Of a stretch of DNA of 64,000 nucleotides, positions 54,531-57,146 are shown piece by piece (the first letter of the stretch is position 1; the number at the start of each line of letters is the position of its first letter). Source of the DNA: an uncultured bacterium (lineage in GTDB: Bacteria; RBG-13-66-14). The stretch covers positions 31,852 to 95,851 of the forward strand of contig CAYTCV010000001.1 in NCBI GenBank assembly GCA_964436465.1. The letters run 5' to 3'. A program made the position numbers and the translations under genes. Below the pieces are notes generated by a model. It saw only the letters and a program-made list of their open reading frames with translations. It was not told the origin of the DNA and did not search any database.

Positions 54531-54938
54531 CTAATACTCCGATGGCTTGTCGCCGATGACGCCCTTTAAAACCAGAATCCCAACCGCGACCAGCGCCAGG
54601 CCGACCCAGCCCGGAATCGAGGTCCAGAAGCCTATCCACAGCGGAAGTCCCATGAAGGTGCAGCCCAGAAAACACGCGAGGCCGATGAAGAAGAGTATCA
54701 ACCCGGAGGTGAAGAATCCCGCCGCCCGCTGCCGGGGCGTTTTCGGCTTACGTTCGATGTCGGTAAGCCAGTCGGGCGGCGTGATGCCCTGCCGTAGCGC
54801 CTCCATCCTCTCCTCGTGAACCAGCTTCTTCCTCCGGAAGTCCAGCCAAATGGCCAGCATCCCGATGCCGATTCCCATGAAGACCGCGGTGAATCCGACT
54901 ACATCCATGAGAGCCCCCGTCCGCAGTATTCGCCTCAC
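54531..54938 (-). CDS. hypothetical small multi-TM membrane protein
   Basis: Three to four hydrophobic helices; may start at the internal MDVVGF (54908). Confidence 0.45.
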   Translation of the reverse strand: MRRILRTGALMDVVGFTAVFMGIGIGMLAIWLDFRRKKLVHEERMEALRQGITPPDWLTDIERKPKTPRQRAAGFFTSGLILFFIGLACFLGCTFMGLPLWIGFWTSIPGWVGLALVAVGILVLKGVIGDKPSEY

Positions 54939-55101: not shown

Positions 55102-55229
55102 GTATCCGCGACGGCGAGCCGTTAATCCGCGACGGCGAGCCGTGTATCTGCGACGGCGAAGCCGTGAATCCGCGACGGCGAGCCGTGTATCTGCGACGGC
55201 GAAGCCGTGAATCCGCGACGGCGAGCCGT
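55102..55229. repeat. six tandem 21-22 bp direct repeats (GAATCCGCGACGGCGAGCCGT consensus) in a divergent intergenic region
   Basis: Units at 55102, 55123, 55144, 55166, 55187 and 55209 alternate between two variants (ATCCGCGACGGCGAGCCGT / ATCTGCGACGGCGAAGCCGT); they lie 45-175 bp upstream of the ECF sigma gene start and 165-290 bp from the divergent membrane-protein gene start. Confidence 0.8.
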
Positions 55230-55275
55230 GAAACCGCTCCGCCCTTTTTTGTATCGAAGGGTATGAAAGCCGTTT

Positions 55276-55860
55276 TTGTTGGAGACGGAACGGGAACAGG
55301 AACTGATTCGCCGGGCGATAGAGGGCGACGAGAACGCATTCGCCGAGCTGGTGCACGCTACACAGGATTTAGTTTATACGTGCTGTTACCGCGTCCTGCG
55401 GGAGCCCCGGGCGGCCGAGGAAGCCGCGAACGAGGCCTACCTGCGGGCCTGGCGCGGCCTGGCCGGTTTCCGCTTCCAGGCGAAATTCTCCAGTTGGATT
55501 TTCCGCATCGCCCACAACGCCGCGGTGAGGATGGCGACCCGTCGGCGCCTGGAAACGGTCTCCATGGACGACGAGGAGCACCCCGGCCTGGCGCAGGCGG
55601 CCGTGGACGAGCCTACGGCGGAGCGCGCCCTGGAGGCGGACGGCGAGTTGACGCTCGTGCGCGGGCTGCTGGACGAGCTGCCGGAGAACGAGCGCCGGGC
55701 CATCGAGCTGGCGTACCTGGAGGGTGTGGATTACCGCGACGCCGCCGCGGCCCTCGGGTGCCCCGTGGCCACCCTCAAGACCTGGGTTCATCGCGGAAGG
55801 AAGCGGCTGCGGGAGCTCTACATCGAGCGGACGGGCGGTCCGTTCCGGGTTGCCGAATGA
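55276..55860 (+). CDS. ECF-type RNA polymerase sigma factor (sigma-70 family region 2 + region 4)
   Basis: TTG start; region 2 (FAELVHATQDLVYTCCYRVL...AEEAANEAYLRAWRGL) and region 4 HTH (LPENERRAIELAYLEGVDYRDAAAALGCPVATLKTWVHRGRKRL). Confidence 0.85.
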   Translation: MLETEREQELIRRAIEGDENAFAELVHATQDLVYTCCYRVLREPRAAEEAANEAYLRAWRGLAGFRFQAKFSSWIFRIAHNAAVRMATRRRLETVSMDDEEHPGLAQAAVDEPTAERALEADGELTLVRGLLDELPENERRAIELAYLEGVDYRDAAAALGCPVATLKTWVHRGRKRLRELYIERTGGPFRVAE

Positions 55861-55894
55861 TTGTATATTAGGCTATGCTTTACGAGGGGTGAAC

Positions 55895-56590
55895 ATGGAC
55901 GCCGACGAGCTGCGGGACTTTTTAGACCACGGTGGTCGGTCGAGCGGGGAGAGGGGGAGTCGCGGAAATATGAACGCCGACGAGCTGAGGGAGCTTTTGG
56001 ACCGGTACGCGGCCGGTGAGCTTCCCCCCGAGGAGCGGGAGGCCTTCCGGAGCGCCCTGGAGAGGGTCCGCCGGAAGGCAGAAGGCGTCGAGGAGCGGGT
56101 CGGCCGGCTGGAGGAAAAAATCACCGACCGGGTGAACCGGGCCGTGGAGAAGATTGACACCCGGCTGGCCGAGGGCGGGGAGAAGCTCCGACGCAAGCTG
56201 GACCTCCTGGATGAGCTGAACCTCGCCCGGCGCATCGAGGAAAAACTACACCGGGTGGTGCTCTTCCGAGCACCGGAGAATCTGAGCGCCGCCGTGATGC
56301 GGGGCGTTTGTGCCGAGAAGCGGCCGAAGGTGGTCATTCCGCCGATGCGCCGCTCGCTGATGCCCGCCGTGCTACTGGGGGGCGGCCTCCTCGTGGCGCT
56401 GACCGTCGGCGCCGCCGCCATCCTGCCCATGTTCGGGGTAAACCTCGGGGTAAATCTCGGCGGGCTTCCCGACTGGTTCACCTGGATTCCCGCCGGTCTT
56501 TCGGCCTGCTTCGGCGCCGGCATGGTCCTGCGGACCCTTCTGCGCTCCCGGAACGACCCGGCCTTCCGGACCGCCGTAAAAAAAGGGTAG
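55895..56590 (+). CDS. anti-sigma factor candidate (membrane-spanning), with duplicated N-terminal segment
   Basis: Immediately downstream of the ECF sigma gene; N-terminal ELRELLDRYAAGELPPEEREAF anti-sigma-like helix, coiled-coil middle, C-terminal TM segments; MDADELRDFLD and MNADELRELLD are a tandem duplication, so the start may be 55895 or 55970. Confidence 0.5.
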   Translation: MDADELRDFLDHGGRSSGERGSRGNMNADELRELLDRYAAGELPPEEREAFRSALERVRRKAEGVEERVGRLEEKITDRVNRAVEKIDTRLAEGGEKLRRKLDLLDELNLARRIEEKLHRVVLFRAPENLSAAVMRGVCAEKRPKVVIPPMRRSLMPAVLLGGGLLVALTVGAAAILPMFGVNLGVNLGGLPDWFTWIPAGLSACFGAGMVLRTLLRSRNDPAFRTAVKKG

Positions 56591-56596
56591 GAATAG

Positions 56597-57064
56597 ATGG
56601 ACGGGGACCTTCTGCCCGACGGACGGCGCGAGATGAGCGTCTTGTTCACCAACCTCGAAGGCTTTAAGGGGCTGGCCGAGAAGCTGGGCGATGAAGGGGC
56701 GGCCTCGCTCCTGGCCGAATACTACGACGCCGTGGGCCGGATAGTCGAAAAGCACGGTGGGGTGGTGGACAAGCTCATGGGCGAAGGCGTCCTAGCCACG
56801 TTCAACGCCGTGGCCGAACTGGAGGACCACGGCCCGGTGGCGCGTCGGGCGGCGGAGGAGATAATCGCCGAGGTCTCCCGGCTGACGGCCGGGGGCGGTC
56901 CGCTACGGGCGGCGGTGGGCGTGGCGTCCGGTCCCGCCGATGTTCGTACCTTTTCCGCCGGCTCGTACACCGCCACCACCGTAGTCGGCGGGACGGTGAG
57001 CCGCGCCGCCCAGGCCGCGCGCGGACGACGTTACGGCTCGGTTTCCGACACCGACGCGAAGTAG
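56597..57064 (+). CDS. class III adenylate/guanylate cyclase-homology domain protein, catalytically degenerate
   Basis: MSVLFTNLEGFKGLAE...HGGVVDKLMGEGVLATFN aligns with the FTDIVGFT...GG.VDKFIGD cyclase core, but both metal-binding Asp positions are N and E; 155 aa, standalone. Confidence 0.55.
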   Translation: MDGDLLPDGRREMSVLFTNLEGFKGLAEKLGDEGAASLLAEYYDAVGRIVEKHGGVVDKLMGEGVLATFNAVAELEDHGPVARRAAEEIIAEVSRLTAGGGPLRAAVGVASGPADVRTFSAGSYTATTVVGGTVSRAAQAARGRRYGSVSDTDAK

Positions 57065-57146
57065 GCGTCCGTTTCACGATGAATCCCGCCCCGGCGGGGT
57101 TTTTTCCATATTTGACGCCCGCGGCGGCCTGGGATAAGATAGCCCC

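Follow-up and report, generated by a model that had tools for sequence, protein, structure and literature searches.

A short class III cyclase-homology protein encoded behind an ECF sigma/anti-sigma pair, with lineage-specific changes at its catalytic positions

Extracytoplasmic function (ECF) sigma factors of the SigW type have two domains, and the gene for their RsiW-type anti-sigma factor, a protein with an N-terminal zf-HC2-type helix and a membrane anchor, lies directly downstream. The SigW-type promoter motif is TGAAAC / CGTA. In other ECF systems, such as EcfG-NepR-PhyR and RpoE-RseA-RseB, a third gene is co-transcribed with the sigma/anti-sigma pair; in these systems the third component is either a receiver protein that resembles a sigma factor, as in the partner-switching protein PhyR (PMC4551977), or a periplasmic binder, rather than a protein of the cyclase fold. 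Class III nucleotidyl cyclases, for their part, usually carry an Asn-Arg pair for the transition state (PMC4215837). Here we analyse a stretch of 64,000 nucleotides from an uncultured bacterium of Candidatus Coatesbacteria (contig CAYTCV010000001.1, positions 31,852 to 95,851; hereafter ‘the window’), in which a sigma factor gene, an anti-sigma gene and a gene for a 155-amino-acid (aa) class III cyclase-homology protein follow one another on the forward strand.

The explanation we favour, with about as much doubt as confidence, is that the third gene is a sigma-controlled, mini-cyclase-like cargo of an ordinary ECF operon, and that it has degenerated in this lineage. That is, a SigW-like sigma factor and a membrane anti-sigma factor would be expressed from an autoregulated promoter at 55229-55255, and the third cistron would come from a family that ancestrally keeps the two metal-binding Asp residues, the Lys/Thr pair and the transition-state Asn. 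Its position behind the anti-sigma gene would make its dose follow sigma activity, as expected of a cargo or output and not of a core part of the switch. A burst of change in the window lineage, including D19N, D63E and N135S, would then have left the window copy without the canonical two-metal mechanism. As an intact and apparently well-translated reading frame, this copy would either serve a non-catalytic role, such as nucleotide or partner binding, or stand at an early stage of decay.

The operon and its third product

Open reading frame (ORF) calling places three + strand genes in 55276-57064: the sigma gene, the anti-sigma gene and the 155-aa ORF. The elements on which the argument depends are as follows.

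55229..55255, + strand: putative autoregulatory ECF promoter, SigW-like, TGAAAC-N15-TGTATC (conserved footprint)
55276..55860, + strand: ECF (group 4) sigma factor, 194 aa, TTG start (Pfam and NCBIfam models)
55970..56590, + strand: anti-sigma factor, 206 aa from its conserved start (Pfam, alignments, hydropathy and charge)
56597..57064, + strand: standalone class III (Lys/Thr type) cyclase-homology protein, 155 aa, C-terminally truncated, with N19, E63, S135 and Q139 (profiles and alignments)
57088..57110, + strand: intrinsic-terminator-like hairpin and T-run at the operon end (stem 57088-57100, then TTTTTCC)

The sigma factor has sigma-2 and sigma-4 domains only (Pfam Sigma70_r2, E=4.7e-13; r4_2, E=4.1e-16). 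It scores 88.5 bits against TIGR02937, for which the cut-off is 42.9, and its top named NCBIfam model is SigW (E=9e-34, under the equivalog cut-off). The ratio of nonsynonymous to synonymous divergence (dN/dS) of its gene is 0.18-0.22 in comparisons with relatives. Upstream of the gene, the hexamers TGAAAC (55229-55234) and TGTATC (55250-55255) are both invariant across six relatives, with a spacer that varies. The full pattern TGAAAC-N15-TGTATC resembles the SigW-type motif and has a single match in the 64-kb window, compared with 0.03 expected by chance; it is probably the autoregulatory ECF promoter of the sigma operon.

The genes are tightly spaced. Only 6 bases (56591-56596) separate the anti-sigma stop from the ATG of the 155-aa ORF, one fewer than the preliminary description of the locus had counted, and in one relative (L003) the two genes overlap by 4 nucleotides (nt; ATGA), which also supports an operon. 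A pattern scan found no + strand terminator-like site inside the three genes, the first being the hairpin at 57088. On the 3' side of this hairpin lies a sigma-70-like promoter of xseA, TTGACG-17-TAAGAT (57112-57140). The form TTGACG/TTGACC-N17-TAAGAT is conserved in sequence even in distant relatives (window, L167 and L008), and so xseA is presumably transcribed independently of the cyclase gene. Since there is no inner + strand terminator, a terminator follows the cyclase gene and xseA has a promoter of its own, the sequence signals identify the sigma, anti-sigma and 155-aa genes as one co-transcribed operon, separate from xseA. A comparison with known RNA families gave no match near threshold in the upstream repeat array, the leader or the operon.

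The 155-aa sequence alone falls below the cut-off of the Pfam Guanylate_cyc model (PF00211; E=0.011, 15.8 bits against 21.9), for which its relatives reach up to 36.6 bits. A family profile built from this protein and 11 relatives matches the cyclase CyaB (PDB 3r5g) with E=4.7e-15, and Cya2, CyaC and photoactivated cyclases with E-values of 1e-11 to 1e-9, while the single sequence matches the PADLOC PycC cyclase model with E=3.5e-15. The homology is therefore secure despite the sub-threshold Pfam score, and the window protein is, as far as profiles can establish it, a real class III cyclase-homology domain. In this respect the ORFs, Pfam and the family profile bear out the preliminary description, which had placed a standalone domain of this kind after the sigma/anti-sigma pair.

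In order to assess the catalytic positions, we took the 146 best matches from outside the family, which supplied 183 canonical cyclase domains, and aligned these domains to the family profile. The two metal-binding positions are Asp in 173 of 183 (column 19) and 175 of 183 (column 63) of these domains; the window protein has Asn and Glu. The transition-state pair is Asn in 148 of 159 (column 135) and Arg in 110 of 115 (column 139); the window has Ser and Gln. Conversely, the substrate pair, Lys at column 59 (156 of 183) and Thr at column 128 (125 of 183), is retained in the window and invariant in the family. The class III alignment thus puts N19, E63, S135 and Q139 on catalytic columns, just where the preliminary description had seen Asn and Glu replacing the metal-binding Asp residues and altered transition-state residues. 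Because both metal-binding Asp residues are lost in the window copy, and because the Arg and the C-terminus are missing in the family, canonical catalysis by this copy is very unlikely; judged from the alignment, loss of the canonical two-metal mechanism is very likely.

One could nevertheless suppose that the window protein is an active cyclase with non-canonical residues, in which Glu63 and Asn19 hold the metal and Ser135 replaces the Asn. Glu can ligate divalent metals, and K59 and T128 are still in place. Moreover, the mycobacterial cyclase Ma1120 is active with Ala in place of the canonical Asn (PMC4215837), so that activity can survive the loss of the Asn by itself. In the window, however, both metal-binding positions have changed at once, at columns where Asp is found in 95-96% of canonical domains; the Arg is absent, the C-terminal part of the domain is missing, and conserved positions have changed in a general burst along with the catalytic ones. 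We therefore regard an active enzyme as highly improbable.

The PycC match could also be taken to mean that the protein is a defence-type cyclase, like PycC of the Pycsar systems, or that it is another palm-domain synthase such as a GGDEF protein; one relative, P0013, indeed passes the Pfam GGDEF threshold (27.3 bits against 23.8). But the PycC models are themselves class III cyclase domains, so that matching them indicates generic homology, and the neighbours of the gene are sigma, anti-sigma and xseA, with no adjacent effector gene, that is, none for the cyclic-nucleotide-sensing partner of Pycsar. Similarly, the proteins have no GG[DE]EF motif and carry FTDxxGF, KxxGD and GxxVN instead, and the profile favours cyclases (E=4.7e-15) over the diguanylate cyclase TpbB (E=0.23). 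We reject both the Pycsar and the GGDEF reading, which have hardly any chance of being right.

The mini-cyclase family and the window copy

A full HMMER scan of 1.84 billion representatives returned only four clusters (at 50% identity) with E<=1e-30, of 155, 124 (partial), 150 and 145 aa; ordinary multidomain cyclases follow in the ranking from E~1e-26. Family members are 145-155 aa long, and the named genome records that contain them are metagenome-assembled genomes of Candidatus Coatesbacteria. The aligned PDB cyclase domains, in comparison, have 166-200 residues. Residues 10-137 of one member (P0010) fall on Pfam positions 6-133 of 183, so that the 155-aa proteins end near position 151, and the last ~30 positions of the cyclase domain, its final strands, are absent from the whole family. 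In class III cyclases this missing region carries a phosphate-binding Lys. A frameshift or read-through as the cause of the short length is ruled out by the relatives of 145-155 aa and by the terminator after the gene.

The relatives differ from the window copy in exactly those positions that matter most. D19, K59, D63, T128 and N135 are kept in every other member of the family, down to 48% identity, and all five are included among the 43 of 140 ungapped columns that are invariant in these members. At column 139, where canonical domains have Arg, the family varies between M, L, R, G, V, K and Q. It follows that the prediction of inactivity made in the preliminary description is reasonable for the window copy, but that the dead state is not a property of the family. 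The simplest reading of the conserved residues is that selection in the family acts on metal-nucleotide chemistry, be it turnover or only binding. Considering the missing Arg and C-terminal strands as well, we infer that these proteins bind a metal-nucleotide complex and are at most weak or atypical cyclases.

By contrast, N19, E63 and S135 occur only in the window and in twins that are 99-100% identical to it (P0001, L085, L086); independent metagenome contigs contain this allele at 99-100% identity. At columns that are invariant in its clade, the window copy has 14 private substitutions, compared with 0-6 in every other member, and five of its substitutions (D19N, D63E, E115D, H124Y and N135S) fall on columns invariant in the whole family. 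The window protein is 78% identical to that of L005, its closest relative with both Asp residues, whereas the flanking genes are 89-95% identical. Its dN to the outgroup L003 is 0.254, versus 0.151-0.157 for three sister sequences. In three-taxon estimates, the window branch has dN of ~0.12, dS of ~0.33 and a ratio omega of ~0.37; for L005, dN is 0.02 and dS 0.13. Given this dN and omega, the window gene has changed fast and yet, to judge from the substitution pattern, is not evolving neutrally.

These same figures can be used to argue that the window copy is a functionless gene, decaying towards a pseudogene after the loss of catalysis. Three catalytic residues are gone along with 11 further residues at clade-invariant columns, the divergence from L005 far exceeds that of the neighbours, and the gene appears already to have been deleted in a relative. 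On the other hand, the ORF is intact, its ribosome-binding context is kept, and its length is the same as in relatives; the branch omega is well under 1; the allele persists in separate metagenomes; and the fold is retained in the predicted model. Decay without function is thus an unlikely, although not a negligible, alternative to the degenerated cargo gene that we prefer.

Linkage to the sigma/anti-sigma pair

The preliminary description had proposed that the cyclase-like protein is a third component of the sigma regulatory switch. It is important, therefore, to ask whether the gene is conserved next to sigma/anti-sigma pairs. The trio is present throughout the clade whose cyclase is >=63% identical (L001, L003, L005, L006, L087-L093 and L168). 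The gene order of this clade is NHL protein, AIR-synthase-like, recA, DUF6249-like (minus strand), sigma, anti-sigma, cyclase, xseA, xseB, ispA and dihydroorotase. As the clade is one fully syntenic block, co-occurrence within it reflects shared ancestry and is not independent evidence.

Outside this clade the association does not hold, which is an outcome that the preliminary description itself had named as refuting its proposal. In L007, L008 and L172-L174, where the cyclase is 50% identical, the gene precedes xseA-xseB-ispA without an adjacent sigma pair; upstream are polA and ~1.6 kb without sigma or anti-sigma. In L170 and L171 (protein P0172, 145 aa), the gene has rnf genes and a RimK-like gene before it and an aminoacyl-tRNA synthetase gene after it; this context was read from a 157-kb contig with a member of the P0014 cluster. 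The cyclase gene therefore has at least three contexts, as an autonomous unit. Starting from the anti-sigma side, all 11 family members belong to the same clade and provide no independent test, but this search did reveal L166 and L167 (Candidatus Coatesbacteria, GCA_011058395.1). There, DUF6249, sigma and anti-sigma are followed by a 250-nt gap and xseA, and no cyclase remnant was found in the gap (L167 1609-1858) at E<1. The xseA of L166 is 79% identical, inside the range of the trio clade (L093, 75%), and so the cyclase was probably lost in these two. Their sigma gene contains an in-frame TAG and is called as two ORFs (L166 740-1303, L167 392-955), with an intact anti-sigma gene. This stop could represent decay of the module or a sequencing error; the two assemblies may share data.

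The structure of the anti-sigma factor also bears on the question. Its zf-HC2 match is weak but passing (23.6 bits against 22.2, residues 31-57 of the long form), its NCBIfam ‘antisigma’ match is weak (E=0.0034), and the His/Cys of the H-x3-C-x2-C zinc motif are absent from the aligned N-terminal helix region (MNADELRELLDRYAAGELPPEEREAFRSALERV) in 12 of 12 sequences. Numbered from the second Met, its hydrophobic segments lie at ~131-155 (strong) and ~171-191 (weaker); basic stretches flank both, on the N-terminal side and in the tail. We infer that the segments form a membrane hairpin whose two ends are cytoplasmic, with an outer loop of 14 residues. The conserved parts are the first helix, the helix preceding the membrane segment and the basic C-terminal tail, with a variable coiled region between; the predicted cytoplasmic tail (SRNDPAFRTAVKKG) includes the invariant NDPAF..A.K. 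A tandem duplication of 12 nt (56433-56460, + strand; 2.3 copies) encodes GVNLGVNL in the predicted outer loop.

Such an anti-sigma factor makes it conceivable that the pseudo-cyclase acts as an anti-anti-sigma factor or adaptor, binding the cytoplasmic part or the tail, possibly depending on nucleotide, and so controlling sigma release. Several observations fit. The third cistron is tightly coupled in every clade member, from the gap in the window to the overlap in L003; the hairpin has no evident sensor domain, and its tail is invariant; the window copy is under purifying selection despite its lost catalytic residues; and L166 and L167, which have no cyclase, also have the sigma stop. Yet the co-occurrence comes from a single syntenic block, catalytically intact members lack an adjacent sigma pair in two other contexts, and in L166/L167 the pair exists without the cyclase. 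The relatives, in addition, have retained all of their metal and substrate residues, for which a pure scaffold would have no use. Nor did we find a precedent in the literature searched for a cyclase fold as an ECF regulator, or for pseudo-cyclase domains as the known partner-switching modules that the preliminary description took them to be: a search for ECF groups linked to cyclases and for bacterial pseudo-cyclases yielded nothing usable, and the word ‘cyclase’ occurs 0 times in the main text of the ECF re-classification paper. The comparison of relatives gives no support to an obligatory third component; we consider a regulatory role unlikely, though not negligible, on a par with functionless decay.

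A more specific variant is that the mini-cyclase is the nucleotide-sensing partner of the sensor-less, hairpin-anchored anti-sigma factor, such that sigma release would be linked, in relatives with both Asp residues, to the binding or turnover of ATP or GTP, and the window copy would have become a pure, non-catalytic pseudo-cyclase regulator. We think this decidedly less probable than either of the two preceding alternatives. If true, it would define a new class of ECF input module built on the cyclase fold; and the broader proposal of a switch component would likewise make the cyclase fold an input module for a sensor-less anti-sigma factor, a new mode of ECF sigma regulation, which the comparative evidence does not favour.

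Returning to the view of the gene as sigma-controlled cargo, degenerated in the window, several points weigh against it. An anti-sigma factor without an extracytoplasmic domain needs an input from the cytoplasm or the membrane, for which the co-translated mini-cyclase is an obvious candidate, and this favours a role in the switch. The absence of the cyclase in L166/L167 together with the sigma stop could be read as a joint loss, and hence as functional linkage. The dS of the cyclase gene relative to L005 is 0.46, compared with 0.14-0.24 in neighbouring genes, and DNA identity to L005 is 72-92% across the cyclase gene alone (56609-57058) and mostly 88-99% in adjacent DNA; recombination with a more distant strain may therefore have brought in the allele, which in that case did not evolve in place. 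With its C-terminal strands and Arg missing, the whole family could perhaps be non-catalytic; the conserved Asp, Lys, Thr and Asn would in that case be there only to bind nucleotide, and it is this binding, not catalysis, that the ‘degenerated’ copy would have lost. Finally, the AlphaFold2 model was built on 12 sequences, and its predicted local distance difference test score (pLDDT) exceeds 70 in only 2 of 5 models. A search of the window by tblastn found no second cyclase gene that could supply a heterodimer partner.

Should the preferred explanation hold, the result would be a tidy annotation: a lineage-restricted family of unusually short, single-domain cyclase-like proteins, and within it a natural allele that has recently lost catalytic residues while its ORF persists. 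The window allele can be regarded as a small natural experiment on an enzyme fold drifting towards a pseudoenzyme. More generally, when residues look ‘dead’ in one sequence, its relatives should be examined before a regulatory role is put forward.

The remaining features lie around the sigma gene and at the start of the anti-sigma gene.

54531..54938, - strand: small multi-pass membrane protein, DUF6249-like (Pfam DUF6249, E=7.8e-5, 23 bits against a cut-off of 33, hence below threshold)
55102..55237, + strand: tandem array of 21-nt units, 6.3 copies, or in an alternative reading three copies of 43 nt (Tandem Repeats Finder)
55892..55928, + strand: upstream copy of a 37-nt repeat with ATG 55895 (repeat search), in frame only in the window lineage

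The DUF6249-like gene adjoins the sigma gene in L001, L003, L005, L006, L093, L166 and L168. It is always divergently paired with it, even in the genome that lost the cyclase; as a constant partner or target of the sigma factor, its product comes into question more readily than the cyclase does. The 21-nt array, with the consensus ATCCGCGACGGCGAGCCGTGA, lies immediately upstream of the -35 element of the putative ECF promoter, and by pattern match its units hold GAATCC-N15-GTATC look-alikes of that promoter. It is seen only in the window, with 6 units, and in L005, with ~3; the array is absent in L001, L003 and L093.

The anti-sigma ORF ends at 56590 and contains in-frame ATGs at 55895 and 55970, each of them the beginning of one copy of a direct repeat. 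The preliminary description had reported a tandem duplication of about 75 nt, leaving two possible starts. The repeat is real and both ATGs are in frame; however, it consists of 37 nt (55892-55928 and 55967-56003, 84% identical) spaced 75 nt from start to start, Tandem Repeats Finder reports no 75-nt unit there, and the second ATG is the conserved start, since the alignment of all 11 relatives begins at the second Met, which is M26 in the long form. If used, ATG 55895 would add 25 residues (MDADELRDFLDHGGRSSGERGSRGN), and it may do so in the window lineage. The leader of the upstream copy and its ribosome-binding context, which is the ancestral one, are those of the single copy in L001 and L005.

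The repeat is duplicated in the window, L086, L088, L168, L006 and L003, and single in L001, L005 and L093; by this distribution, the leader duplication is older than the window lineage. The in-frame spacing of 75 nt is confined to that lineage, through a 1-nt length difference from L088 and L168. With their spacing of 74 nt, these two have a 30-codon upstream ORF (MDADELRDFLAQSSRSSGEGGAAVIWTPTS, then a stop) that ends 13 nt inside the anti-sigma ORF. This ORF, homologous to 55895-55985 of the window, suggests translational coupling or leader control of the anti-sigma gene. In L006 and L003 the spacing is 73 nt and the ATG is replaced by CTG or GTG, with a stop as well in L003. On the preferred explanation, then, this would be an ECF operon with a rapidly evolving promoter, leader and cargo gene.

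Some features of the loci without an adjacent sigma pair may be recorded here. In L008 (4700-5850; also L172 and L174), polA and the mini-cyclase gene are separated by ~1.2 kb of visibly AT-rich DNA without a convincing ORF, at the position that recA, DUF6249, sigma and anti-sigma occupy in the window clade. This DNA may be what is left of an insertion or rearrangement; an IS1595-type transposase lies near it in L172. A TGAAAC, followed 15 nt on by GTCGCA, precedes the mini-cyclase ATG by about 52 nt in L007 and L008 (L008 5945-5975). This TGAAAC resembles the ECF -35 element of the window and would fit control by an ECF sigma factor encoded elsewhere; the two loci are 98% identical, so that conservation between them is uninformative.

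Comparison with described systems

The sharing of a transcript between a sigma/anti-sigma pair and a third gene recalls EcfG-NepR-PhyR and RpoE-RseA-RseB. Unlike in those three-component switches, the co-occurrence of the cyclase and the sigma pair breaks down outside one syntenic clade. The pair itself corresponds to the SigW/RsiW type in its two-domain sigma factor, its directly downstream anti-sigma gene, the zf-HC2-type helix at the N-terminus of the anti-sigma factor and the membrane anchor. It departs from that type in the anti-sigma factor, which lacks the His/Cys zinc ligands and is predicted to form a hairpin with a 14-residue outer loop and a cytoplasmic tail.

Among proteins of the cyclase fold, the title of PDB entry 6yii, a class III adenylyl cyclase-like ATP-binding protein of P. 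aeruginosa, invites comparison. The 6yii chain has 473 residues and is labelled a transcriptional regulator; the family profile has no sequence-level match to it at E<=1. Another parallel is Ma1120 of Mycobacterium avium (PDB 4wp3, 4wp8 and 4wp9; profile match E=1e-5), which is likewise small and likewise departs from the Asn-Arg pair. Its solved chains are nevertheless longer (171-210 residues), and Ma1120 keeps the Arg (R168) and has the substrate pair K101/D157 (PMC4215837), whereas the Arg and the C-terminal region are missing from the family, and the Asp pair from the window protein.

The closest likeness is to the subclass b (Lys/Thr) cyclases CyaB of P. aeruginosa (PDB 3r5g) and CyaC of Spirulina (PDB 1wc0-1wc6), which share the fold and the motifs. 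The family profile matches CyaB over residues 7-141, and in the relatives of the window protein FTDxxGF, KxxGD and T..GxxVN align with these enzymes column for column. The family differs from them as a single protein of 145-155 aa that has no sensor domain, ends ~20 residues after the Asn and varies at the Arg column; the window copy differs further in that its D, D and N are replaced by N, E and S.

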